This document shows, piece by piece, positions 12,128 to 56,895 of a stretch of DNA of 64,000 nt; position 1 is the stretch's first letter; each line of letters opens with the position of its first letter. This stretch comes from a virus. The stretch spans positions 4,337 to 68,336 of the IMG/VR virus record IMGVR_UViG_3300021964_000050. The stretch is one strand, 5' to 3'. The notes beneath the pieces are model-generated. The model saw only the letters and a program-made list of their open reading frames with translations, was not told the origin of the DNA and made no database searches. The position numbers and the translations under genes were made by a program.

Positions 12128-12141
12128 AGAACGCACGTTCG
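12128..12141. promoter_or_regulatory. LexA (SOS) box-like site
   Basis: AGAAC-GCAC-GTTCG versus actinobacterial CGAAC-N4-GTTCG, in a divergent intergenic region. Confidence 0.5.
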
Positions 12142-13572: not shown

Positions 13573-13600
13573 ATCATACCCATATCCATAGGTATGTCAA
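13573..13600 (-). promoter_or_regulatory. housekeeping-sigma promoter
   Basis: TTGACA-N16-TATGAT. Confidence 0.55.
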
Positions 13601-13653
13601 TAAACGGCCTTTTTAGACCCTACCTGTGGATAACTCCTGATATGAGGGTGATA

Positions 13654-18722: not shown

Positions 18723-19177
18723 CAGTCCTCCCGGTTGTTCGCAATAAAGTTTTCTCGCTCATCACCGGTCAACATGGCACCAAAGTACGCCGTCCTTGGC
18801 ACGGTAGTCTCGTGGATCTGTCCGCCACGACGCACCCACGAGTGGTTACGCCAGAGACCGTCATCTGATGAGGCATACCCGGACCACAACTCCGTATCGG
18901 GTTCACGTGCGGCACAGTTGGCGCTGTTGCCGTGACACCTGCTCATTTCTCCGGGCATCGGTACCGACTGTCCACCGTGAAGAACGCCACGAGAAACGAG
19001 TCGACGGTTAAACGCCGCTTCGCCCGCCGCCGGAACTAGCAGGGACTGCTCGTGTCCGGGCAGACCCTGTATATGACGCTCTAATCCGGTGTGCGCTTCG
19101 ACATCTTCGGCAGGCCAATCTGACATGCGAGTCTGAAAGAACTGTTGTCGGTTGAGTCGGTCTGGTCCGCTGAGCAT
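18722..19177 (-). CDS. transglutaminase/papain-like Cys-His protein
   Basis: CHGNS..GYA..HSWV..ETT; TAAATT -10 six nt before ATG. Confidence 0.55.
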   Translation of the reverse strand: MLSGPDRLNRQQFFQTRMSDWPAEDVEAHTGLERHIQGLPGHEQSLLVPAAGEAAFNRRLVSRGVLHGGQSVPMPGEMSRCHGNSANCAAREPDTELWSGYASSDDGLWRNHSWVRRGGQIHETTVPRTAYFGAMLTGDERENFIANNRED

Positions 19178-19377
19178 TGGGCCAATTTACCATACCCATA
19201 TAGGGGCCATAGCCGCCTTTGTTACGCAAAATGGCTAGGGGCGCGTGATAATTGTCACGACACACAAATGGTTGAGGTGAACGGGCCTATGTGTTTATTG
19301 TCACAACGGTGTGGCTATTTCGCGGGGGCCTACATGGGGTCGTTTTTTCGATTATTGGGGGGTGTCATCTACCCCCC

Positions 19378-19740
19378 TGTGGATAAACTTGTGGACAACT
19401 AATGGTGGGGGGGTCTCCCTGTGGATAACTTTACTTGACAAACCTGTCAACCCCTGTTCCACCCTTATTCCATAAGGGTTTCGTGACTTTGCGTTATCCA
19501 CAACCCCTGTGGACAGTGAATCGAACACCTGTTCGTCAAGGGGTGTCGATGTGACATTTGTCACGCTGAGTTATCCCCAGAACATATGTTCTTGTGGAAA
19601 TCGCCCCCGCAAACCCTTATTCCACCGTAGATAGGGGGGTCAAACCTGTGGAAAAGCCTGTGGAAGCCAATCTTTAGTGCTAAATGCGTTTGAGCCTTAT
19701 GCCGTAAGGGTTTCAGCAGTTATCCACTGGTTGTGGGAAA
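19378..19740. promoter_or_regulatory. DnaA-box cluster (~11 boxes; origin-like or datA-like)
   Basis: TGTGGATAA 19378 and 19420, TTATCCACA 19494, TGTGGACAA 19390, near-matches at 19508, 19571, 19593, 19647, 19659, 19720, 19732. Confidence 0.85.
19521..19592. promoter_or_regulatory. two LexA (SOS) box-like sites
   Basis: TCGAAC-ACCT-GTTCG 19521-19535; AGAAC-ATAT-GTTCT 19579-19592. Confidence 0.7.
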
Positions 19741-20122
19741 CGCGCTGGTAGCCCCCCGATAGCCAGCAAGCACTGCCACACCAGAATCGACCTACGCCGC
19801 TCAGCGGGGCTTCTGGGGGGCAATGCGGTGTCAAGTGACATTTGTCACACTTATCGACCTACGTTCGGGCCTACTGTGACATTTGTCACACCAATCACCG
19901 CTGTGTGGGTAGGAAACCGAACACTTGTACCCCCCACCCCCAGTTGCTATCACCCTGTGACCTTTGTCACATCCCCTCCCCATACATACATATGTCCTCT
20001 CTCCCATGACCTTTGGATTCGGGGGCGACCTTGGGGCGACCGAGGTGTGACAAACGTCACACAAACTTTCTTCCCCGACATGCACGAGTTGCTGGGTCGC
20101 CATGGCACCTTGGAACCATGAA

Positions 20123-20670
20123 CACCGGCCAGCACGGTCGGCCTCATACCGCTGGAGTGCACATGACAAAGCGCAAGCGACCTCCCCCAATGACGGGGGC
20201 GGGGACAGCACTCCCACTGACTACGAGTCATCACCTCACTGGGTATCCGGTGACGGTGGTGCCTGCGTATGTCTTGCCCACCTACGGGAACGACGGGGGC
20301 GGTACAACGAGCGGACAGAACGACGCTCCACATCATTCACATCTGCGTGCAGGACTTCCCCTTGGCTGGGGAGCACTTCGGTGGCCTGCACTCACGACGT
20401 ACTACAGACCTGCGGAACTCTTACCGCCACCAACCCATCGGATGCCCGAGTGTTGGGGGCGACCACGAGCAACGAGATCGACCACTACGTCCGACAGCAA
20501 CGGCAACGACGGCATCACCACCGTCCGACTGTTCGTAAAGCACGCAGGCATGAGTCAGTCAGTCCCCTTGGCAGGGGACAAGGTGACGACGACTCAGCAC
20601 CCTCGCCGGAGGGTGCGCCCACCATTCACTGACGTCAGCCGGTGCATGGTGGGGGCACACTCCGGTGCCC
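20123..20670 (+). ncRNA. candidate large structured RNA (~550 nt)
   Basis: more than 12 abutting helices, including a 10-bp long-range pair 20259-20268/20542-20551 and a C(UUCG)G loop; no credible ORF. Confidence 0.6.
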
Positions 20671-20697
20671 ATCCCACAAGCCTGAGGAGGCAACACC

Positions 20698-21024
20698 ATG
20701 GAAGCAACCATCTCAATCACCCTCACCGACCAAGAGGCCGAGGACATCCTCGTCACCGCCTTGGAAGGGGGCATCAACTACTGGGCAGACGTCATCTCAT
20801 CCGGTCGCAACGACGGCGTGCTGATGGCGCACATTCGCCCCACCGAAGGGGACGACTTCGAGCCAATGCTCATCCACCCCGGCCACATCCAGCAGGGCGT
20901 CGACCGGCTCTGCGCCAGCGAGTGCCAGTGGCATGTCACTGACCTACTCAACGACAACGCCGACGCCACCACCGCCGACGTCATCGTGCAGTTCGCAGTG
21001 CTTGGTGACATCATCTTCGGATGA
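20698..21024 (+). CDS. early hypothetical protein
   Basis: GAGGAGG RBS; ALEGGINYW..DA..AD.I.Q.A.LG.I.FG phage family pattern. Confidence 0.8.
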   Translation: MEATISITLTDQEAEDILVTALEGGINYWADVISSGRNDGVLMAHIRPTEGDDFEPMLIHPGHIQQGVDRLCASECQWHVTDLLNDNADATTADVIVQFAVLGDIIFG

Positions 21025-21082
21025 CAGGACGAAACACCCGCAAGGGTGTCACGGGGTGGTAGCCCCGTCTGATGAGTCCATC
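21020..21082 (+). ncRNA. type II hammerhead ribozyme
   Basis: GGAC-GAAA-CACCC(GCAA)GGGUG-UC^ACGGGG(UGGUAG)CCCCGU-CUGAUGA-GUCC; full core and three stems; predicted cleavage after C21050. Confidence 0.93.
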
Positions 21083-21107
21083 AGCCCACGAGCCTTAGGA
21101 GGCCACC

Positions 21108-21314
21108 ATGCAAGTAACCGTCAACCGCCAGCAACTCGCCCACAACGCCCTGCGCCGTCGTGCCGATGGTATGCGCCGTGAGATCGACGCCTTCATCGAC
21201 GCCTGCGAGGGCATGGACGTCGATGAGGTGGCCTACGCCATCGTTGACCTTCGTGACGCCTTCGACCGATTCCGCAAGGCCGGTATCAACCTCGTGAAGG
21301 AGGCCAACGCATGA
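21108..21314 (+). CDS. early hypothetical protein
   Basis: AGGAGG RBS, biased codons. Confidence 0.75.
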   Translation: MQVTVNRQQLAHNALRRRADGMRREIDAFIDACEGMDVDEVAYAIVDLRDAFDRFRKAGINLVKEANA

Positions 21315-21429
21315 CCGGCAACCAAGGTCACAAGCCCATCCGACGCCCCATCGACGCCACGGCCTCACGGTTCGTGGCATCGGGGCGTCACCACGCCCAG
21401 CACGGAAGCAAACCCACCAAGGAGAAGAA

Positions 21430-22092
21430 ATGAACGCCATGACCAACCGCCAACAGTCCCTCATCCACCGCCTCTGCAATGAGCGGATGGGGGCGCTGAC
21501 CACCACTCACGCCCACCTGCTCCAGCAGGAGATCGTCACCACTCGTGACGCCTCGCAACTCATCGACGCCCTCATGGCAGTGCCGACTGACCCCGTTGAG
21601 GTCGATCAGGCCGAGCAGGGGCGCATTGAGGCTCTCAAGGCCAACGTGCCCAACCTCTCCCCCAAGGACGCCACCTTCGCCCTGTCGCTCATCAACCAGT
21701 TCGACAGCAAGGGTCGCCTGAGTGAGAAGCAGTGGCCTCACGTTGACCGCCTCGCACGGCCTCAGGCTGAGGCCAAGTGCGACCCTCAACCGTTGGACAT
21801 CGTAGACGTCGATGGCGACCACTACCTCGTTGCCCGTAGCCAGCCAGAGCGTGGTGGTCGCTTGTACGCCAAGCGCCTCATCGACGGCAAATGGTCGTAC
21901 GAGGCCGGTGGCATCGACCGTGCCCGTCAGGGTCATATCCTGACCGGTGACGCTCTCGCAGAGTTCGCCAGCAAGCAAGGCCACACTCACGGTCACTGCG
22001 TGTTCTGCGGTCTTGAGTTGACCGACGAGCGTTCAGTCACCGTTGGCTACGGCAAGCACTGTGCCGAGCGACGCTCCTTGCCTTGGGGCTGA
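21430..22092 (+). CDS. DUF6011-like Zn-binding protein
   Basis: C-terminal CVFCGLELTDERSV..GYG.HCA; LSEKQW motif. Confidence 0.75.
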   Translation: MNAMTNRQQSLIHRLCNERMGALTTTHAHLLQQEIVTTRDASQLIDALMAVPTDPVEVDQAEQGRIEALKANVPNLSPKDATFALSLINQFDSKGRLSEKQWPHVDRLARPQAEAKCDPQPLDIVDVDGDHYLVARSQPERGGRLYAKRLIDGKWSYEAGGIDRARQGHILTGDALAEFASKQGHTHGHCVFCGLELTDERSVTVGYGKHCAERRSLPWG

Positions 22093-22158
22093 GTCATCGA
22101 CTACCGTCCATATCCCATCAACCCATACCCATACCAACCCGAGCCTCAGGAGGCCACC

Positions 22159-23625
22159 ATGTCCACACTCGCAGACCTACTCGCTGGCAACGCCAGCACC
22201 CCGGCGCCATCGACGTTCACTGACGTCACGCCGGTTGACCTCGCCATTCCCCTGATGGACTTCCAGCAGGAGGCAGTAGCCCACGCCCTTCGCCCAGTGC
22301 AGGGTTCGCCCTACGCCTACCTCGCACTGGACATGGGTCTCGGCAAGACCCCCTGTGGCATCGCCATCATCGCTTCGTGCCACAAGGCGCAGGGTGGCAA
22401 GCACCTCGTCGTGGTGCCTCCGTCGCTCCGCATCAACTGGGAGCGTGAGTTCGCCAAGTTCGCACCGTGGCTCTCAGTCGCCATCCTGACCGGCACCAAG
22501 CCATCGGCACTGCCCGATGTCGATGTGCTCATCATCGGTGACAGCACTGTCGCCCACTGGGAGTTGGCTCTCATGGGCAAGGTTGAGTCCCTCGTGGTCG
22601 ATGAGGCACACCGCCACAAGAACGGCAAGAGCAAGCGTGCCAAGGCACTCGCCAACATCGCCAACACCGTGCGGGGTGCCCGTGTTCTGCTCTCAGGCAC
22701 GCCGACTCCCAACGGTCGCCACTACGAACTGGCCTCGCAGTTCGACATCCTTGGCAAGCGTGCTTGGAACGACATCGGTGGCGTCGGCACCTTCTGGGGG
22801 CGCTTCTGCCCCAAGACCGACGCATGGGGCGGGCGTGGCAACGCTGAGGGCGATGTCCTGCACGCCTTCATGACCGACACCTTCATGATGCGCCGTCGCC
22901 GTGATGACGTCATCGACCTCCCCAACAAGGGTCGGTCGGCAGTGTCGATGGAGTGCGCTGGCAAGGCCAGTAAGGACTACATCTCCGCTGAGAATGACCT
23001 CATCGCATGGCTCTCCGATCAGGGTCGTGACACCCGTGGCGCTGAGCGTGCCGAAGCCCTCGTCCGCATGAACACTCTCCGACGCCTCGCTGGTGAGGCC
23101 AAGGTTCAGGCAGTCGTGGAACACGTCAAGGAACTGCTGGAGGACGGCAACGGCGGTGTGTTCGTCGTCGCTGAGCACAAGGACGTCATGGACAGGCTCA
23201 TGATGGGTCTCGCTAAGTACGCCCCCGTCAGTGTTCAGGGTGGCATGTCCGACAGTGCCAAGCAGGAGGCAGTCGATGCCTTCTCATCAGGCCAGAGCCG
23301 GGTCATGGTCGGCCAGATCATTGCGGCTGGTGTCGGCCTCACGCTCCACGGCAACGGTCTCAACCACCGTGTCGTCGTCGTCCAACTCCCATGGACACCG
23401 GCTGACCTCCGTCAGGCAGAAGATCGCCTGCACCGCATCGGTCAGACCAACGACGTCGAAGTCGAAGTGGCACTCGCCCACATCGACGGTCGCTGGACTA
23501 TCGACGAGCGTCTCTGGACAATGCTGGAGAGCAAGAACTTCGCCACCGGCGAGGTCATCGACGGCTCCGGTGATTACCTGCTGGACAACAGCACCGCTGA
23601 CGGTGTGTTGGACACCTACCGCTGA
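22159..23625 (+). CDS. SNF2-family helicase / annealing ATPase
   Basis: DMGLGKT, VVDEAH, LSGTP, QAEDRLHRIGQ. Confidence 0.9.
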   Translation: MSTLADLLAGNASTPAPSTFTDVTPVDLAIPLMDFQQEAVAHALRPVQGSPYAYLALDMGLGKTPCGIAIIASCHKAQGGKHLVVVPPSLRINWEREFAKFAPWLSVAILTGTKPSALPDVDVLIIGDSTVAHWELALMGKVESLVVDEAHRHKNGKSKRAKALANIANTVRGARVLLSGTPTPNGRHYELASQFDILGKRAWNDIGGVGTFWGRFCPKTDAWGGRGNAEGDVLHAFMTDTFMMRRRRDDVIDLPNKGRSAVSMECAGKASKDYISAENDLIAWLSDQGRDTRGAERAEALVRMNTLRRLAGEAKVQAVVEHVKELLEDGNGGVFVVAEHKDVMDRLMMGLAKYAPVSVQGGMSDSAKQEAVDAFSSGQSRVMVGQIIAAGVGLTLHGNGLNHRVVVVQLPWTPADLRQAEDRLHRIGQTNDVEVEVALAHIDGRWTIDERLWTMLESKNFATGEVIDGSGDYLLDNSTADGVLDTYR

Positions 23626-31087: not shown

Positions 31088-31537
31088 ATGCAAACATTCG
31101 CACCCGAAGGTCGTGCCATCGACCACGGCTTCCGAGCACTGGACTACCAACGCTTAGGCAAGCAACGTGTTGAGGCGTGGCAGATTCTCAACGTCCTGCG
31201 TGGCGTAGACAACGAAGGCAACCCCAAGAACCACAAGGGCTGGGTCAACCACCCTGCCACCCGTATGTGGGACGGTCACATCGCTGGCCTAGCGTTCTAC
31301 GGGATGCTCTGCTGTAAGGAGTGGATTAGTCGTGGCTACAACGACTCCATGCTTCACCGCTTTGAGGCCGTCTACGTCAAATACACCGACTGGGGCGACG
31401 ACCCCACACCCCCAGCGTTCTTAGACGACATCTGTATCTCGCACCGGAGCAACCTCATCCGCAAGTTGCCCGAGCATTACCAACCTCTATGGCCTGATAC
31501 ACCGGCAGACTTGCCGTACGTCTGGCCTGTAGCGTAA
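31088..31537 (+). CDS. pyrimidine-dimer DNA glycosylase-like protein (MSMEG_6728 family)
   Basis: MQTF..LD..RLGKQRVEA.QI, GW.NHPA..MW, SHRSNL.RK, LPYVWP. Confidence 0.85.
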   Translation: MQTFAPEGRAIDHGFRALDYQRLGKQRVEAWQILNVLRGVDNEGNPKNHKGWVNHPATRMWDGHIAGLAFYGMLCCKEWISRGYNDSMLHRFEAVYVKYTDWGDDPTPPAFLDDICISHRSNLIRKLPEHYQPLWPDTPADLPYVWPVA

Positions 31538-33004: not shown

Positions 33005-34074
33005 TTCATGGACTCCAATAGGTCTATGAGAGCCTTAGCGCCAATGGCTATGTCTCTCTGTCGGACAAGTTCTAACAACGCTTGCTGGTACTCTTCACGA
33101 ATACCCTTGTCCAACATCTTAGTCAAAGCCTTTATCCAGTCTCGTGGACGCTTAGCCAGTATGAATCCCGTACCCCAGTCCTCGTGGAGTTCCTTGTATG
33201 CCGACAATGGGGAGGCTATGAAAGGGATACCAGCAGAAGCGTATTCCAGCCCCTTGATATCGCTCTTAGCATGGTTGAAAGGTATGTCATTCAGGGGGAC
33301 AAGGCCAACATTCATCGTCAGCATCTCTTGATACTGGTATGAGGGGCGTAGTGGAGTAGTCCCCACTAGTGACTCATCAACTTTCAGGGCATCGGCAAAC
33401 TTGGGCGCACTCTCATCATGACCGGCATGAAGCAACTTGATACTGTCGTTACGTAAGAACTGCGGGAAGATTCCAGAGAGAATCTCAAGATCACCGGAGC
33501 GGTGAGCAGTAGACCCTACCCACCCTACGGTAGGGGTATCGGGCTGATCTACCGCAGAGAACTTAGCGGTATCGACAGTGTTCTTCAGTACCGTCGTAGG
33601 CACCTTGAACTTCTCCCTAACTTTCTCAGCGATGTAAGGTGTGCTAGAGATAACGAAGTCACAACTCGCCACATTACGTGCGTAGAACACCGTGTTCTCT
33701 TCTTTGTTGTATTTGGGGTGCGATACCTTCCAAGCGTTGTTGCGTGGGTCTAGCGCCCAGTACCAGTCGTCAATGTCGTGTACGACAATCTGACCAGCCT
33801 CCTGAGCCAGTCTCGTAGTGTCGGCTACACCTTCGTGCATAATGCGCTGAACGATGAGGAGGTCGGGGGACATCTTTTCTTTGGTGTAGCCATCTGCCAC
33901 CTCAATGTGGTCTCTGACCTTCCACATGGTGCCAACTGTGACTTCATGCCCAGCCTCACGGAGGTATGGGATGTATTGACCGATGCGTGCCCAGCCAGCG
34001 CCTCCCCACTGCTCATTGCCTGTGGGGGACTTCTCAGGTCGCAGGTAATCGGCGCTTGCTACGCCTATCTTCAC
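33001..34074 (-). CDS. GT-B glycosyltransferase
   Basis: DIDD, VGWVGS..H..DL, PL....FN..KS.IK.LEY...G.P.IAS. Confidence 0.85.
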   Translation of the reverse strand: MKIGVASADYLRPEKSPTGNEQWGGAGWARIGQYIPYLREAGHEVTVGTMWKVRDHIEVADGYTKEKMSPDLLIVQRIMHEGVADTTRLAQEAGQIVVHDIDDWYWALDPRNNAWKVSHPKYNKEENTVFYARNVASCDFVISSTPYIAEKVREKFKVPTTVLKNTVDTAKFSAVDQPDTPTVGWVGSTAHRSGDLEILSGIFPQFLRNDSIKLLHAGHDESAPKFADALKVDESLVGTTPLRPSYQYQEMLTMNVGLVPLNDIPFNHAKSDIKGLEYASAGIPFIASPLSAYKELHEDWGTGFILAKRPRDWIKALTKMLDKGIREEYQQALLELVRQRDIAIGAKALIDLLESMK

Positions 34075-34331
34075 AACGCCTTGCGCTCCTTGGCGGTGAG
34101 GCCACCCCACACGCCGTCACGTTCGTCGTTCTTGGTAGCAAACTCTAGACAATGCTCTACAACGGGACAGGTGGCGCAGATGGCTTTGGCTTCTGCCACA
34201 CGCTTCCAGTCAAAGAAGATGTCACCGTGCTCAGCGCAGGCTGACAGCAGACGCCACGACGAGTCATCGTCGTTGAACTTGAGAGATGGCAGGTCGGTGT
34301 AAAGTGGGAGTGTATCTTCGGTATGGCTCAT
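34071..34331 (-). CDS. whiB: WhiB family transcription factor
   Basis: SAC..AKAICATCPVVEHCL..GVWGGLT..ER. Confidence 0.92.
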   Translation of the reverse strand: MSHTEDTLPLYTDLPSLKFNDDDSSWRLLSACAEHGDIFFDWKRVAEAKAICATCPVVEHCLEFATKNDERDGVWGGLTAKERKAL

Positions 34332-34363
34332 GGTGTCAGCATACAGGCTACGTGTGGCAATGT

Positions 34364-34729
34364 TCAAGTCTTACTTCTTGGCCTGCGCTTCAGATGCTTA
34401 CGTATCTCCATCCGCAACTCTGTGATGGACAGGGCAACCTCACTGTCGGCCAACGGCATGACGCATAACTTGTCTAGTGGCAGATAAGTCTTGGTCTTTC
34501 GGTAGACGTTATTACGGCGCTCCTTAGGGGTTTGCCCGCCCCACATACCGTACTCTTCGTCCTGCCCTGCTTCATGGCACTCGTTGATGACCGGGCAGTG
34601 CTCACATACCAGTTTCCCTAAGTCGTAGTACTGTGCTTCGGGGGCAGTGCGCTCTTCCTTGAAGAGGGGTGGATACCACATCTCACTGTGCATACCACGG
34701 CACAAAGCATCGTCAGACCAATGAGCCAT
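34364..34729 (-). CDS. whiB: WhiB family transcription factor with C-terminal extension
   Basis: ALCRG..VCEHCPVINEC..GMWGG.T..ER. Confidence 0.88.
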   Translation of the reverse strand: MAHWSDDALCRGMHSEMWYPPLFKEERTAPEAQYYDLGKLVCEHCPVINECHEAGQDEEYGMWGGQTPKERRNNVYRKTKTYLPLDKLCVMPLADSEVALSITELRMEIRKHLKRRPRSKT

Positions 34730-34731
34730 TA

Positions 34732-35037
34732 CTAGTACGTGTTCTCCACGCAGTCCCAGCCACATGCCGCATAGCCAGCCAGATCAACCCAGTTGTCACG
34801 GCGGTCAGGAGACCATGCAATACGACTCAACTTCAGCATCGACATCAGTACAGCAACGTCGTGGGGTAGTAGGTGGTCACGGTGCTCGTAGACCGACTTG
34901 AGGTAGATGTCCCACATACCTGCGGTCTTACGGAAGTCATCGTTGGGGTCGCCGTAATCGACGTTACGGTCACCGTTGATGAGGTCGTTGGCCTCGTTGA
35001 GCACCTCAGTGCGAGTCTGTCCGGTATTAGCGTTCAT
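34732..35037 (-). CDS. DUF6378-like protein (nucleotide pyrophosphohydrolase-like helical domain)
   Basis: L.EA..LINGDR..DYG.P..F..A..W, K.SR, D.W.DLAGYAA. Confidence 0.8.
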   Translation of the reverse strand: MNANTGQTRTEVLNEANDLINGDRNVDYGDPNDDFRKTAGMWDIYLKSVYEHRDHLLPHDVAVLMSMLKLSRIAWSPDRRDNWVDLAGYAACGWDCVENTY

Positions 35038-35049
35038 GATACCCCTATG

Positions 35050-36483
35050 TTATTCGTCAATGATGTCAGCGTTGAGTATGTACTCGTCTAACTGCTCCGT
35101 GGTTACCGGCTCCGACAACTCATTGGCCTTAGACCCGGCCTTATCACCGAAGATGCGACTCAGTACGCCAGCAGACCCCTTGGCTTCCATCTCAATGCGT
35201 ACAAGGTCACGGGTATCTTCAATATCCTTGAACTCTTTGACCAACTTGAATAGGCGATCCATCTCTTGAGACAGGTTGGGGTCCATACCCTGACCTTCTA
35301 GTTCTTCAGCGAAGCGAGCGAACATCACACGGCTGGTTTGCATCTCCAGCATGGCCGTCAGGACGGCTTGCAGTTGTTGCTTAGTCCGTATCTCAACTGG
35401 AATACGATAGGCACATTCTACATGTTCCTGAAACGAGGGACAGCGGGGTGCTAAGTAGCAACTATCACAACTGCGTATGCCGGACGTGTTGTGACGCAGT
35501 ATCTCTACCTCATGTCCTTGTGTTTCCTGCACTTCATCGCCATCAGGGGTGGTGAAAGTACCCTTCTCAACCACCCTTTCTATGCCTAATACCGGTAGCA
35601 ACTTTCGGTCACTGTCGTGCCTACTTTGAGGGGGGTCGGTAGCAAGAGCCGGGGTGCTAGAAACCGGAAAAGACGATGTGGCAGTTAGGGGGGTGATATC
35701 AACTACACCCCCCTCATTAGGGGCTAAGAACTCGCTCTCGTCGTCCTCGCCTGAGGGGTGATAGGCCGAAGTATTGAAGGTATGCGACTCCCATGCAAGC
35801 CATGATTTCACTGCTAGTCGAGCCACTTCACCGACGTCATCGGCCTGTATGGCTTCGTAATCTACCCCTATGCGTACGATATCGTTACGGTGACTACGGC
35901 GTGCAGTCTCCTTCTTCTGAGCGGGGTAGCGGCGGAGACCGTGGCCGTCCCAGATCTGAGTCTCGCCGTATCGTACGACACTCGTCCATGAGGATACGAT
36001 AACGGTATCAAACTCCACTGATTCGATGGTATCGACCTTACTGGTGATACCCAGCAGCAAGGCTCCCCACCTTTGCTGCAACTGCCTGATGCGTGGAAGA
36101 GTTTTGGCGTTGATAGCCCTGTCACTGATGGCCGCACGTCCATACTTCTGGCAGAGATAAGCCAGACGTTCTACGTCATGTTCGTCGTTCCATAGGGGTA
36201 TGTACTTCTCCCCCAGCCAGTCTCCGTTGTAGTCGGGGCGACCAACGACCATAGTGATGTCGTCAGCATGGGTACGGATGAACTCGTCAAACTTGTTGAC
36301 GTCCTCGTCCCCGTCACTGGTGTAGACGTAGATTTCAGCACCCCCCAACAGTTCCTTGAGGTCAACTGTCTTAGTCTTAGGGATATTGTATTGGGTGATA
36401 TTGAGGGCGATACGGGGGGCATTGTTAGCCGTAAGGATGTTACGGTACGTCCCCTTTTCACCACCAGAGAGGGCGATCTTCAC
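35050..36483 (-). CDS. conserved hypothetical protein; possible TGT/DpdA-like barrel plus Cys4 Zn site
   Basis: 477 aa; SSW.S..RYGET..WDG; CDSC....RC.......C. Confidence 0.6.
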   Translation of the reverse strand: MKIALSGGEKGTYRNILTANNAPRIALNITQYNIPKTKTVDLKELLGGAEIYVYTSDGDEDVNKFDEFIRTHADDITMVVGRPDYNGDWLGEKYIPLWNDEHDVERLAYLCQKYGRAAISDRAINAKTLPRIRQLQQRWGALLLGITSKVDTIESVEFDTVIVSSWTSVVRYGETQIWDGHGLRRYPAQKKETARRSHRNDIVRIGVDYEAIQADDVGEVARLAVKSWLAWESHTFNTSAYHPSGEDDESEFLAPNEGGVVDITPLTATSSFPVSSTPALATDPPQSRHDSDRKLLPVLGIERVVEKGTFTTPDGDEVQETQGHEVEILRHNTSGIRSCDSCYLAPRCPSFQEHVECAYRIPVEIRTKQQLQAVLTAMLEMQTSRVMFARFAEELEGQGMDPNLSQEMDRLFKLVKEFKDIEDTRDLVRIEMEAKGSAGVLSRIFGDKAGSKANELSEPVTTEQLDEYILNADIIDE

Positions 36484-45282: not shown

Positions 45283-45583
45283 CGTCAGTGCCTGCGATGA
45301 GGAGGTCGATCATGTCGGTGTTCTCCTCTAACAGTTCGTACAACTCCCCAATGGAGTTACCCTGCTTTTCCAGCAGGTTCATCATTACAATAAGCAAGTC
45401 CTTGACCATGCCTAGGTCGTGTGCGTACTTCTCGCTGATCTTGATGAGGGCCTTATTGCCCTCGTCCATATCTTGGTCATACGGTTTAGACTTCTTGCGC
45501 TCATCCCAGTACCCGTCTTTAGGGTAAGAGAACTGTGCCTGCTGGTTAAAGTAGGCTTTCCATGCCGGATGGTTCTCACTCAT
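45272..45583 (-). CDS. hypothetical protein
   Basis: fills gap after recA; start moved to ATG 45583. Confidence 0.55.
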   Translation of the reverse strand: MSENHPAWKAYFNQQAQFSYPKDGYWDERKKSKPYDQDMDEGNKALIKISEKYAHDLGMVKDLLIVMMNLLEKQGNSIGELYELLEENTDMIDLLIAGTDDGD

Positions 45584-46631
45584 TTTCTGCACCAACTTCT
45601 GCTGTTTCTTCTTCCCCAAGTACTGCCGCCATGGCCGCGTCACGAAGCGCCTGCTGAAGACCCAAGTCTTGTCGAACCATGTCATACAGTTCCTCTTTCT
45701 TGCTGGCGATACGTTCTCCTCGGAACTTATAGCGTCCCTCAAACAACTCTAGTGCAAGAGCAACATTCACAATGTCCTTAGCCATGTCGAAGTCGCCCTT
45801 CTTGTATCCCACTGTGTCAGCAAAATAGAAGTCTGCTTGTGCCACCTGCTGGGGGCGGTATGTCTTGTTCTTCATAACACGCATCTTGATGGTCTGACCA
45901 ACACGGGTATCCAACTTGGAACCCTCAGCGATCCACTCATCACGGCGCACCTCTACACGAATGAAGTAGTAATAGTTCTTGGCCTTACCACCGGGAGTGG
46001 TACGGGGGTCACCGAACATGACACCGATCTTGTCACGCCACTGGTTGATGGCTATGAGTGTGCAGGGGCGGTCGTCCTCTGTCAAGGAACGACGTTGGGC
46101 CTTGGCACATTTCTTGAAGAAACGACTGAGGATCTGAGCGCCAGTAGCGACACTGGCCTCATCCATAGCCTTATTGACCTCGGTCTCTGTGACAAGGGCT
46201 GGAAGGCTGTCCAACACAACGCAGTCTACGGCACGGTTTGATACGGCTTTGAGAACAAGGTCTAAAGCGGCCTCCATCTCGTTCGTCTCTACGACCCATA
46301 GCCGGTCTAAATCCACCCCAAATGATGCGGCATATTCAGGTACATACTCTTCAGCCGCAACCCACAAAGCAAGATACTCAGGGTCTTTTGCTTGATTGGC
46401 GGCAATGGTCTTGTAGGCAATAGCCGTCTTACCCGACGACTCTTCACCCACGATCTCGTTCCACTGGTTGGATGCCCAACCACCGCCGAGGGCTAGGTCA
46501 AACGCCAGCACACCTGTTGTGGTGTGGGGGATTTCTTCCTTGGCGTCACTCCCCTTGATGAGTATGTCTTCTCCGTATTTCTTGTTGATTTCCGCTGCTA
46601 GTTCTTCGATTAGTGCCAGATTGTCTTTCAC
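45576..46631 (-). CDS. recA: RecA recombinase
   Basis: TG...DLALGGG, GEESSGKT, VLDS, INQ.R.KIGVMFGDP.TTPGG, KNK; AAGGA RBS before GTG 46631. Confidence 0.92.
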   Translation of the reverse strand: MKDNLALIEELAAEINKKYGEDILIKGSDAKEEIPHTTTGVLAFDLALGGGWASNQWNEIVGEESSGKTAIAYKTIAANQAKDPEYLALWVAAEEYVPEYAASFGVDLDRLWVVETNEMEAALDLVLKAVSNRAVDCVVLDSLPALVTETEVNKAMDEASVATGAQILSRFFKKCAKAQRRSLTEDDRPCTLIAINQWRDKIGVMFGDPRTTPGGKAKNYYYFIRVEVRRDEWIAEGSKLDTRVGQTIKMRVMKNKTYRPQQVAQADFYFADTVGYKKGDFDMAKDIVNVALALELFEGRYKFRGERIASKKEELYDMVRQDLGLQQALRDAAMAAVLGEEETAEVGAENE

Positions 46632-46639
46632 GCTTGTCC

Positions 46640-47128
46640 TTATGACCAGTTGGACTCCATGCCTTGTGCGTAGGAGCCGTTGTACCCACACTCAAAGCAG
46701 TGTGGGCGTGGCTGTTGCCCATTGACACGTGCGGCACCAGCCGCCATGCCTGAATAGGCTGTGTAGCCAGTCGTGCTACCGCAAGATGGGCACGCCATAT
46801 GCCCCTCAGTGCGGTGCGCTTCACCCCCACGCCACAGACGCATAGCATCACTCATGCTGACTTCGGCGTTAGGGTCTCGGTTGGGGTCCAGTACCTCTTG
46901 GCGCTCCCCAGTTTGGAGAGGGACACCAGCCATAGATTGTTGTACAGCAGGTTGTTGCACCGGTTGCTGTACCGGTTGTTGAGTCTGTACGGGCTGAGGT
47001 TGTACAGGTTGCACAGTAATACCACGGGGTTGGGGCTGTTGTTGGCTGAGTTTGTTAGCCCACCACGAGGAACTATTTGTCATCGTCATCGTCCTCCAGC
47101 ATAGACTGTAGGAAGGTAAGGATGTCAA
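46640..47128 (-). CDS. Q/P-rich Zn-ribbon protein
   Basis: WWANKL, CPSCGS..CFECGY. Confidence 0.7.
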   Translation of the reverse strand: MTSLPSYSLCWRTMTMTNSSSWWANKLSQQQPQPRGITVQPVQPQPVQTQQPVQQPVQQPAVQQSMAGVPLQTGERQEVLDPNRDPNAEVSMSDAMRLWRGGEAHRTEGHMACPSCGSTTGYTAYSGMAAGAARVNGQQPRPHCFECGYNGSYAQGMESNWS

Positions 47129-55596: not shown

Positions 55597-56182
55597 GAAT
55601 TACCTCATGGTCAAAGTCAGCGAGAGGGTTGGCTAGTCGGGAACCGTACCGGTTCTTAATATCTTGAATGGACAGGCGTGAAGTAATGATCGTGGCCTTA
55701 CCCTTGTCGTACCTCTTACGGATTAGGCTACCCAACTCATGCTGTGCGAACCCTAGGTCCTCGCCGTATTTGGGGCTGAGGCGCTCCTCGCCTAGACCGT
55801 CGATGACTACGATGTCAAACACTGCCTTGACGTATTTCACGATGTGTGGGCTGGAGTACATCTCGGGGAGATTGCCGTCAGATGTATCAAACGAATCCTT
55901 AAGCATCTCAATGTAATCATCTGCCTCAATCCACCTCCCAGAACAGTTGTGCTCAGATACTAAGTGCTTCAAGGTACTTGCGGCTATCAAAGACTTGCCA
56001 CACCCTGAGGGTCCCTGAATGAACAGGTTAGGTAGGTCTATCTTGTGGGGGCAGTGGTGCCACCCGTCCATGTTTTCGTAAATACGCTTCGGGATGTGCA
56101 TGTGGTGCAGGCGTTCATCTTTAGGACGATTACGCCACCACGCCTCGCTCTTCCATTCCAACGGTGTGCTGTAGTTCACCAA
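55583..56182 (-). CDS. DnaC/IstB-like helicase loader ATPase
   Basis: GPSGCGKS, VVIDGLGEE, RY....TIITS; upstream of dnaB. Confidence 0.8.
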   Translation of the reverse strand: MVNYSTPLEWKSEAWWRNRPKDERLHHMHIPKRIYENMDGWHHCPHKIDLPNLFIQGPSGCGKSLIAASTLKHLVSEHNCSGRWIEADDYIEMLKDSFDTSDGNLPEMYSSPHIVKYVKAVFDIVVIDGLGEERLSPKYGEDLGFAQHELGSLIRKRYDKGKATIITSRLSIQDIKNRYGSRLANPLADFDHEVIRGKR

Positions 56183-56895
56183 TTCTCCTTGTTACGTCTG
56201 ATCGGGATAGCAATAATGGCCTGCTTGACAGTCTCGTGCTTCTTTCTGATGCTCTTTGGAGACCGCCCCGACGAGGCCAGTTCTTTTGGAAGAGTGATAC
56301 TAGCAAGTGCCTCATGGAGTTGTCCAGTATCTCTCTCATGGGTTCCGAGATTCCATGCGATGAGTTCTTCTAAAGCGGCAAGTCGGTCGGATGTATACGG
56401 CTCTGGGTCATCAGTGCGGAGAATATCTGCCACTACCTCAGGGTATCTCAATAGGGCTTCCTCACAGTACAGCAACACTGCCTTACGCATCTCACGGGTA
56501 TCGGAGAACAGACCGTCGTTGGGCATACCGTCTAACAACCACTGTAGTACCTCATCGTCTTTGGTCACATCCGCATCGAACATCAGTTCGTTCTGCACGT
56601 CATTGGTACAGAACAGTGGTGCTGGCATGGCAACCTGACCTGCCGATGATTGGTAAAAACGATCAATGACGTCCTTGAGTATGTCAGCGCTAAAACCCTG
56701 CTTCAAGCGTCGTGAGAAGAAGATGTTCAACATACTCTTGTCATCCTCGTCACAACGCTGACTCATACGCATATCACGGTGGTATGCGAAGTAATTCGTC
56801 AAGTCCCTAACGGGGCGACTGACGTATCGATTACGTGGTGCGGTGTCTGTCCAACCCATATCTTGCTCCTCTGGATCTGCTCCGAATGTTGGCAT
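56176..56895 (-). CDS. hypothetical protein, possible replication initiator
   Basis: first gene of replication operon, directly upstream of loader; function from position only. Confidence 0.55.
   Translation of the reverse strand: MPTFGADPEEQDMGWTDTAPRNRYVSRPVRDLTNYFAYHRDMRMSQRCDEDDKSMLNIFFSRRLKQGFSADILKDVIDRFYQSSAGQVAMPAPLFCTNDVQNELMFDADVTKDDEVLQWLLDGMPNDGLFSDTREMRKAVLLYCEEALLRYPEVVADILRTDDPEPYTSDRLAALEELIAWNLGTHERDTGQLHEALASITLPKELASSGRSPKSIRKKHETVKQAIIAIPIRRNKENW

Follow-up and report, generated by a model that had tools for sequence, protein, structure and literature searches.

A gene-free divergence point in an uncultured actinobacterial phage clusters motifs for three host regulators and may act as a divergent early control region

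The DNA considered here is a window of 64,000 nucleotides (64 kb), bases 4337-68336 of the linear virus record IMGVR_UViG_3300021964_000050 from IMG/VR, which is 68,336 base pairs (bp) long and estimated to be 72% complete. Between a long block of minus-strand genes and a GC-rich block of plus-strand genes lies a gene-free gap of about 1.5 kb (19178-20697), and within it an 826-bp stretch (19240-20065), here called the hub, holds boxes for the initiator protein DnaA, palindromes of the CRP/GlxR type and LexA-type boxes. From the density of these motifs and from a layout that recurs in distant relatives we conclude that the region genuinely serves in control or in the start of replication and did not arise by chance. 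We read 19178-20697 as a divergent early control region wired to host regulators, in which the DnaA array may add an accessory origin, and we give this reading an even chance of being right. The minimal claim within it, that of a divergent early control region, is based on position, conservation and promoter-like modules.

Results

The motif TGTGAC-N4-GTCACA is found five times in the window at one mismatch or fewer, where 0.46 copies were expected and none of 100 shuffles reached five. All five copies lie within 19550-20061 and no other was found in the whole record of 68,336 bp. Together with two weaker copies at 19244 and 19290 they account for the seven CRP/GlxR-type palindromes which the initial annotation, made from the letters of the DNA alone, had described. 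The GlxR consensus is given as TGTGA-N6-TCACA in the accessible text of one study (PMC7999487), and the mycobacterial CRP motif in that of another overlaps the same core (PMC5758884). This core is perfect at 19875, 19956 and 20046 and has one mismatch at 19550, 19834 and 19290. Beyond the CRP core the hub palindromes carry a conserved C....G inside the spacer, which reads CATTTG in three of the five strong sites, and their half-sites are unchanged across relatives with different neighbouring genes. MtrA, whose half-site is GTCACA, was considered as a reader of the palindromes and set aside because its family binds direct repeats and not dyads, whereas the hub sites are dyads.

For DnaA there is no genome-wide excess of boxes, since 14 were found in the window at one mismatch or fewer and 12.3 were expected from shuffles. 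Seven of these 14 fall inside the hub, which makes up 1.3% of the window (binomial P = 1.9e-10), a strong clustering when compared with the rest of the window; at two mismatches or fewer the hub holds 13 of the 199 boxes. Four boxes in the window are perfect copies of TTATCCACA and three of them lie in the hub, at 19378 (-), 19420 (-) and 19494 (+), accompanied by the variant TTGTCCACA at 19390, just as initially described. The earlier count of about 11 boxes is likewise a fair one, as we counted three perfect, four one-mismatch and four to six two-mismatch boxes, and the pairs set 3 bp apart are present as well, three in number (19378/19390; 19647/19659, with a degenerate second member; 19720/19732, inverted). 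Many box spacings in this and the related hubs described below are 11-12 or 20-24 nucleotides (nt). Pooling 37 boxes from four hubs gave C-TGTGGATAA-C as an extended consensus; a C stands at position -1 in 28 of them and at position +9 in 25, and in the origin of E. coli the two strongest boxes have such a C-flanked context as well. Outside the hub there is one perfect DnaA box, CCTGTGGATAAC at 13625, which stands 24 nt upstream of an 11-of-12 promoter match (TTGACA-16-TATGAT; window 13573-13633, minus strand) that faces a minus-strand gene.

Strain variation was read from contigs of four independent runs and says nothing on transcript starts or expression. The hub is micro-diverse: a second haplotype over 19408-19521 differs at 10 positions, two of which lie within DnaA boxes, both at box position 3 (TTATCCACA to TTTTCCACA and CTGTCCACA to CTATCCACA), and both leave the box intact. 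Position 3 is variable in the consensus TT(A/T)TNCACA quoted in the accessible part of a preprint on phage T5 (10.1101/866236). This pattern is consistent with selection on the boxes and is not significant alone. In one run the summed depth of hub pieces reached up to 370, compared with 25 for the flanking contig, which suggests that other co-occurring genomes share modules of the hub. One strain-variant contig omits 151 nt (19665-19815) that contain the second hairpin and two boxes.

The Cheo box is given as GAACn4GTTC in the accessible text of a published study (PMC2248561), and its ideal form would read CGAACRNRYGTTYC. Two boxes of the hub, CGAACACCTGTTCG at 19522 (core 19523) and AGAACATATGTTCT at 19579 (core 19580), have perfect GAAC-N4-GTTC cores. 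The two good LexA boxes and the weaker one at 19918 that had been reported are therefore present, but they are not special to the hub: the core occurs 10 times in the window against 1.13 expected, a 9-fold excess (none of 100 shuffles reached 10), and seven of the eight copies outside the hub are inside called genes. These eight copies stand at 12129, 32717, 48911, 49109, 53211, 56578, 60694 and 62893. Four GAAC-N4-GTTC copies share the 14-mer [A/C]GAAC[A/G][C/T]ACGTTCG, and GAACACACGTTC recurs beside palindromes in two other loci (L012 and L046).

Because the hub does not align at the DNA level, relatives were sought by way of flanking proteins and the palindrome; the stretch 19000-20300 had no match among 50,697 deposited phage records, and hub DNA gave no alignment to anything searched. 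The reductase protein of the phage led to 40 viral loci and the gene 0.9 kb left of the hub to eight metagenome loci, while the SNF2 protein led to only two relatives (25-26% identity). A scan for the exact palindrome gave 89 viral loci, of which 23 hold at least three near-copies, a fraction that is not an unbiased frequency as each locus was chosen for one exact copy. In viral contigs, an exact 23-mer from the first DnaA-box pair had no match and the 151-amino-acid protein of the left flank had no relatives.

Palindromes and the fixed scaffold were present in every relative recovered, and LexA boxes varied. Four of the 40 reductase loci, L094-L097, are close relatives (terminase 87-93%, portal 91-93% identical), and the closest relatives with the hub on the contig, L095, L134, L136 and L137, share its left edge and scaffold and have three or four palindromes, whose spacing of 56, 27 and ~229 bp is conserved in three of these four loci. 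L096 and L097 contain a 100-bp intergenic unit with CGAACATATGTTCG, CCTGTGGATAA and TGTGACGGAAGTCACA, in which each of the three site types, LexA box, DnaA box and palindrome, is represented. The contig of L096 extends beyond that of L097 and has, before the first rightward gene, a second intergenic region with four LexA boxes and two GTCACA-N3-TGTGAC dyads.

Full hubs were found in three distant phages whose proteins are 27-83% identical to those of the window. Boxes and palindromes are interleaved there in the order of the window, with 7 boxes and 5 palindromes in L043, 12 and 6 in L007 and 11 and 7 in L081; perfect TTATCCACA boxes lie inside the hub in 6 of 7, 9 of 9 and 8 of 8 cases in the records of L043/G001, L007 and L081. 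Locus L043 belongs to G001, a record of 99,044 bp classed as complete, which is syntenic with the window over the whole length (terminase 78%, portal 76%, helicase 61%, polymerase 53%) and is likewise divided into two blocks, the GC-rich one of 16 kb running out from the hub on the plus strand. G001 also carries a palindrome and a DnaA box together (72501/72531) at a promoter-like place away from the hub. Remote phages that share only the reductase with the window have tight DnaA-box arrays as well (Table 1), with a period of 12 nt in L131 and 11 nt in L115, and a third in L103. In the leader of L007 (11960-12310) the palindrome GTTCCACGTGGAAC, which was not seen in the window, is present three times.

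A motif map of seven hubs was used to define the shared scaffold. GGGCCTAY comes once or twice (twice in the window) and is followed by CTACCC, an interval of ~33 nt that holds two DnaA boxes in box-bearing hubs, and a G-run; the next zone has palindromes with or without DnaA boxes, and the last part, ahead of a GC-rich gene, is a leader whose length ranges from 130 to more than 700 nt. The scaffold element ACGGTGTGGCTA is conserved in L136 and L137 and has one mismatch in L134. A hairpin repeat followed by the inverted box GTTATCCAC is found in four hubs, those of the window, L043 (where the box is degenerate), L007 and L081; TGTGGnnA comes after GTTATCCAC in the window and L007, and the window has the hairpin-box unit twice. 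The TTGACA-N4-TGTCAA palindrome of the initial annotation is also in place (Table 1).

Promoter-like modules lie ahead of the GGGCCTAY copies and between the palindrome zone and the leader. TAAATT, TACGAT, TACAAT or TATGAT stands 6-7 nt before the first minus-strand ATG in L137, L043, L007 and L081. As a -10-like hexamer lies so close to the ATG, the sequence suggests that the leftward gene start is of the leaderless type; leaderless starts are common in actinobacteria. On the other side, GGGCCTAY and GGTAGG lie 39-40 nt apart in the five hubs where both elements were found (window, L043, L007, L137 and L134), and the module of GGGCCTAY, palindrome and GGTAGG is likely to be a rightward early promoter with an operator over its -35 zone.

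Table 1. Features of the hub and its surroundings (window positions unless a locus is named; aa, amino acids; ORF, open reading frame)
Feature	Position	Strand	Details
First gene of leftward block, 151 aa	18722..19177	-	from ORF list; no Pfam/PHROG match
Leftward promoter-like element	19175..19189	-	-10-like TAAATT 19184-19189, 6 nt before ATG at 19177
Degenerate palindromes CGTGATAATTGTCACG and TGTGTTTATTGTCACA	19244, 19290 (19244..19305)		3 and 2 mismatches
Conserved scaffold	19283..19377	+	GGGCCTAT 19283, ACGGTGTGGCTA ~19306-19317, GGGCCTAC 19326, T-rich 17-mer 19340-19356, G-run 19357, CTACCCCCC 19369
DnaA-box array	19310..19740		perfect 19378, 19420, 19494; 1-mismatch 19390, 19571, 19647, 19720; 2-mismatch 19310, 19508, 19593, 19732
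Palindrome TTGACA-AACC-TGTCAA	19435..19450		read from sequence
Hairpin-forming inverted repeat CCCTTAT-tcc-ATAAGGG	19462..19478		followed by GTTATCCACA and TGTGGACAG
Symmetric trio of LexA-type box, palindrome, LexA-type box	19522..19592		19522-19535, 19550-19565, 19579-19592; centres 28 and 29 bp apart
Second hairpin-forming repeat CCTTA-tgccg-TAAGG	19695..19709		followed by GTTATCCACT and TGTGGGAAA
Four strong palindromes TGTGAC-N4-GTCACA	19834, 19875, 19956, 20046 (19834..20061)		motif search
Rightward module GGGCCTAC, palindrome 19875, GGGTAGGA	19867..19914	+	candidate early rightward promoter and operator
Weaker LexA-type box CGAACACTTGTACC	19918..19931		one-mismatch core at 19919
GC-rich stretch without convincing coding signal, 636 nt	20062..20697	+	ends at GAGGAGG
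First clear gene of GC-rich rightward block, 108 aa	20698..21024	+	GC by codon position 0.63/0.39/0.83; no Pfam match
Genes for queuine tRNA-ribosyltransferase-like protein, RecA and pyrimidine-dimer glycosylase	35050-36483, 45576-46691, 31088-31537	-, -, +	listed together
Remote DnaA-box arrays	L131 1985-2052; L115 4909-5056; L103 150-290		L103 interleaved with LexA-type boxes

The phage, its host and the flanking gene blocks

The phage is an uncultured estuarine/marine relative of Streptomyces phage BRock. Judged by the terminase, the cultured phages nearest to it are BRock-type phages of Streptomyces (45% identity), and the public runs containing the stretch are labelled as metagenomes from estuaries or the sea; in six of the runs half or more of the sampled words are present, and two of these six may be the source. 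BRock itself has no cluster of DnaA boxes (8 copies of TTNTCCACA are scattered over 112 kb) and no cluster of palindromes (two one-mismatch sites). Tailed-phage genes of the window encode a portal, a large terminase and a baseplate wedge. The replication machinery ascribed to the phage at the outset was found in full, with a DnaB-type helicase, a second helicase, Pol I, a DnaG-like primase and an IstB/DnaC-like loader, and the window encodes in addition RecA, a Cas4-like nuclease, a class II ribonucleotide reductase and an SNF2 helicase. Two WhiB-family proteins are encoded at 34071-34367 and 34364-34765, and since WhiB proteins are not known outside actinobacteria and their phages, the host is an actinobacterium. 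The reductase protein had no match in a collection of species-representative genomes and hence gave no hint of the host by that route, and the window contains no tRNAs. A temperate or plasmid-prophage lifestyle was set aside, as a profile search of the record found neither a tyrosine integrase nor a helix-turn-helix (HTH) protein of the CI/Cro type. A queuine tRNA-ribosyltransferase-like protein of the phage may be a sign of modified DNA bases, and its RecA and a pyrimidine-dimer glycosylase both fit a link to DNA damage.

About 800 bp had initially been taken as non-coding. The non-coding nature was borne out, while the extent was too small: the real gap is that between 19178 and 20697, where no ORF shows a GC periodicity by codon position and the two long ORFs have no match in Pfam or PHROG. 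Nearly all genes of the window lie on the minus strand, with the exception of the plus-strand block from 20698 to ~32200, the first 8 kb of which have 58-63% GC compared with ~52% elsewhere in the window. The compositional split between the blocks is conserved in the window and the complete relative G001; the GC-rich part (window 20698-~28000; G001 77700-93700) has 58-65% GC and a third-position GC of ~0.7-0.8, the rest of the genome ~52% GC. The gene at 20698 is preceded by the ribosome-binding site GAGGAGG.

The stretch 20062-20697 is probably a long leader. It folds better than shuffles (z = -3.8 on the plus and -3.2 on the minus strand), and as it does so on both strands no RNA was identified in it; Rfam gave no match in the hub or leader of the window, nor in L007, L043, L081 and L137. 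Between the first two rightward genes lies a candidate type II hammerhead ribozyme (window 21027-21090, plus strand), a full-length model match that at 34.3 bits (E = 1.7e-4) stays below the gathering score of 37 and in which GAAAC and CUGAUGAG can be seen; no counterpart was found at the matching part of G001.

Discussion

In the reading that we prefer, a shared scaffold consisting of a leaderless-type leftward promoter, the GGGCCTAY/CTACCC/G-run elements, palindrome operators and a long leader before GC-rich rightward genes would have served as a base onto which different lineages added sites for host regulators, in this phage about 11 DnaA boxes and two or three LexA boxes. Judging from the motifs, host DnaA, host LexA and a CRP/GlxR-type protein would bind the hub, and early transcription in both directions would respond to host replication status, DNA damage and the state of cyclic AMP (cAMP). 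A cooperative DnaA oligomer between two outward-firing promoters may also open the DNA for the phage loader and helicase and thereby provide an accessory origin. Phased arrays between two putative outward-facing promoters, in a phage that has a loader and a helicase but in this lineage no origin-binding domain, make such a DnaA-dependent origin a serious candidate, be it as a second function or as a rival. Binding, promoter activity and the direction of control are predicted here from sequence; the motifs, their clustering, their place at the divergence point and their return in relatives are what we observe. A host-state sensor at this point was already part of the initial annotation, and it gains from host-type motifs being confined to and clustered at the place of divergence and from the lack of a phage DnaA, CRP or LexA DNA-binding domain in the record, while it loses from the absence of boxes in the closest relatives and from a LexA core that is spread genome-wide.

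Several findings speak against a control region wired to host regulators. In the hubs of L095, L134, L136 and L137 there is no DnaA box at one mismatch or fewer and no LexA box, so that the DnaA array is dispensable in this lineage, and the genome-wide excess of GAAC-N4-GTTC weakens an SOS reading specific to the hub. The 7-12 near-perfect boxes per hub (one mismatch or fewer) are seemingly beyond the need of simple promoter control. They are mostly TTATCCACA, unlike the model-actinobacterial TTGTCCACA, which the accessible text of one study gives as the high-affinity box of Mycobacterium tuberculosis and Streptomyces coelicolor (PMC4285127), though the preference of the actual host may differ. 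A sigma-70 consensus scan of 18900-20400 returned no promoter match, the proposed -10-like GGTAGG is without the usual final T, and no RNA runs are listed among the public runs containing the stretch. Furthermore, G001 encodes just upstream of its helicase loader a protein of 438 amino acids with a Crp-type winged helix (21007-22323, minus strand), which could read the palindrome.

This last protein bears on another explanation, namely that the palindromes and perhaps other repeats are operators for phage proteins only, their likeness to CRP sites being convergent or due to a captured CRP-type helix. Residues 70-105 of the G001 protein match Crp-type HTH models at or near threshold (PF13545 with 28.4 bits in a six-frame search and 25.4 bits with hmmscan; PF00325 with 21.0 bits), and its recognition helix reads GISRETVIRS. 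Its C-terminal half is homologous to a window protein likewise encoded just upstream of the loader (56176-56895, minus strand; 28% identity, E = 6e-18), which is without the N-terminal part of ~200 residues that includes the winged helix; among 19 database homologs 17 are full length with the N-terminal part and two are short like the window protein. Since the recognition helix varies in the 17 full-length homologs (SRETV.R, SAKTVKR, SVATVKR, SKETTKR and others), the palindrome half-sites are constant among hubs, and the window without the domain keeps the palindrome, we think that the G001 protein is an initiator-like factor with sites of its own rather than the reader of the palindromes. The motif S/T-R-E-T/S-V/I/L-x-R/K is in no other ORF of the window or G001, and an N-terminal winged helix was not found in five other partial relatives (30-61% complete), which is uninformative. 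The 72%-complete record has no match to PF08299, PF13545, PF01726 or PF01381, the families that stand for DnaA domain IV, the CRP-type HTH, the LexA DNA-binding domain and the Cro/CI-type HTH (HTH_3), and in complete G001, too, DnaA domain IV and the Cro/CI-type HTH are absent. The possibility that a phage regulator reads the palindromes, which had been left open at first, thus finds no help in the window record and some in G001. A binder may be encoded in the missing part of the record, the central C....G exceeds the CRP core, and three or more copies, as in the 23 loci mentioned above, are typical of phage operators; altogether we consider operators for phage proteins only to be unlikely. 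Of somewhat greater weight, though still doubtful, is the explanation that the hub is mainly a DnaA-dependent replication origin, where host DnaA would oligomerise on the array and open the DNA with the help of outward transcription, the loader would load the helicase, and the palindromes and LexA boxes would gate firing. The boxes are more like an oriC than a promoter in how densely they lie, in their quality, in the orientation they share and in their helical-phase spacing, and the hub is the only repeat-rich non-coding region found; neither iterons around the initiator-like gene nor other tandem arrays of this kind turned up in the window. A helicase, a loader, a primase and Pol I are encoded by the phage, its initiator-like protein is without the winged helix that 17 of 19 homologs carry, and the distant reductase-sharing phages L131, L115 and L103 have their tight arrays beside other direct repeats. 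Mapping of GC skew, suggested in the initial annotation as a check, showed that the skew does not turn at the hub, either in the window or in the complete relative G001, though in phages such a test is weak. Neither a conserved AT-rich unwinding element nor a run of DnaA trios was seen in the hubs; a T-rich patch of 17 nt (19340-19356) lies 22 bp from the first box and is not conserved in L043, L007 and L081. The array is absent from L095, L134, L136 and L137, and such a loss would follow if recombination-driven replication, for which the phage has RecA and the Cas4-like nuclease, could make the origin dispensable. G001, moreover, has the array in addition to an initiator with a DNA-binding domain of its own, from which it follows that DnaA is not simply replacing a lost domain.

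Two further explanations draw on analogies with known systems. As a sponge in the manner of datA, multiplying phage genomes would soak up DnaA, LexA and CRP, thereby blocking host initiation and derepressing the SOS response. Many consensus-type sites of predicted high affinity per genome, gain and loss among close relatives as expected of an accessory trait for host manipulation, and LexA-type cores over-represented 9-fold genome-wide and also inside genes would suit this idea. For a sponge there would be no need to have the sites precisely where the two promoter-bearing blocks diverge, arranged in a fixed order with the promoter-like modules, and boxes that stand singly at other promoter-like places suggest that they act locally. 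This combinatorial local use of sites at other promoter-like places speaks for a role as transcription-factor sites, and a host-state sensor is therefore favoured over a pure sponge, for which we found no support of its own and which we regard as very unlikely. We give hardly any weight to a cis site like that proposed for T5, where the boxes would hold the entering genome at membrane-bound DnaA and so stop or stage injection. The accessible part of the T5 preprint does describe paired DnaA boxes in an untranslated region next to the first-injected genes (10.1101/866236), and the hub borders a compositionally distinct block of genes of 12-16 kb, but the T5 model is itself a hypothesis, the closest relatives are without boxes, and in the stored record of G001, which is classed only as having terminal repeats, no stretch of 50-500 nt was found to be the same at both ends. 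A broader proposal, which we put forward as quite improbable, is that the hub, with its consensus DnaA boxes among CRP-type and LexA operators, is a portable mimic of the host origin, gained and lost among lineages of widespread uncultured marine/estuarine actinobacterial phages; it would capture DnaA for phage replication without a phage origin-binding domain and starve the host origin, its firing being conditioned on damage and cAMP.

The divergent control region that we prefer resembles several known systems in part. The datA locus of E. coli and the DnaA-box clusters of Bacillus subtilis have many high-affinity boxes within a few hundred bp and bind DnaA without starting replication. These lie on the host chromosome, whereas the hub is phage DNA at the point where promoter-bearing gene blocks diverge, and other operators are mixed with its boxes. 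In the origins of phage P1 (oriR) and of the plasmids pSC101 and F, DnaA boxes stand beside repeated sites for a second DNA-binding protein. The repeats of the hub are dyads instead of direct iterons and its DnaA boxes are far more numerous; no direct iterons and, in the record of the window, no Rep-type binder were found, the initiator-like protein at 56176-56895 being without a winged helix. SOS boxes in phage promoters, through which host LexA sets phage gene expression, are known from Bacillus phage GIL01 and CTX phage. Unlike these temperate phages, the present record revealed no integrase or CI/Cro-type protein, and the LexA boxes are one variable component of the hub.

The closest parallel to the DnaA boxes, as far as it is described in the accessible part of the preprint, is the injection-stop region of T5, an untranslated stretch in which eight DnaA boxes, paired at a distance of 3 bp, stand amid repeats and palindromes and for which a function is hypothesised (10.1101/866236). 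Both are large gene-free stretches in a lytic phage with repeats, palindromes and ~8 or more boxes that often form pairs 3 bp apart, and both are conserved among relatives. The hub differs in the phylum of the host and the lineage of the phage, in being an internal divergence point where the T5 region is a terminal repeat, in its additional CRP-type palindromes and LexA boxes, and in having up to 12 boxes (one mismatch or fewer, four hubs mapped) that are lost in some close relatives. With actinobacterial CRP/GlxR operators, as given in the accessible texts of PMC7999487 and PMC5758884, the hub shares the TGTGA-N6-TCACA core, perfect in three of the five strong sites. Its extra conserved C....G in the spacer and its arrays of 4-7 predicted sites on phage DNA set it apart from them. 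A full-text search of the literature on DnaA boxes in phages and actinophages, which excludes subscription journals and supplementary files, found no description of such a hub.

Conclusion

Phage control regions normally use phage-encoded repressors, and phage origins normally use phage initiators. What appears to be new here, judging from the predicted sites, is a phage control or origin region in uncultured marine actinobacterial phages that is modular across lineages and made from consensus sites for three host regulators. The hub is built largely from consensus sites of three host master regulators and is conserved across phages with proteins that are only 27-83% identical. It also provides a concrete system in which ideas on the as yet unexplained DnaA boxes of T5 can be tested. 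Should host DnaA, LexA and CRP indeed bind the hub, these phages would directly read replication status, DNA damage and cAMP, and abundant environmental actinobacteria would face a phage that competes with the chromosome for its initiator.

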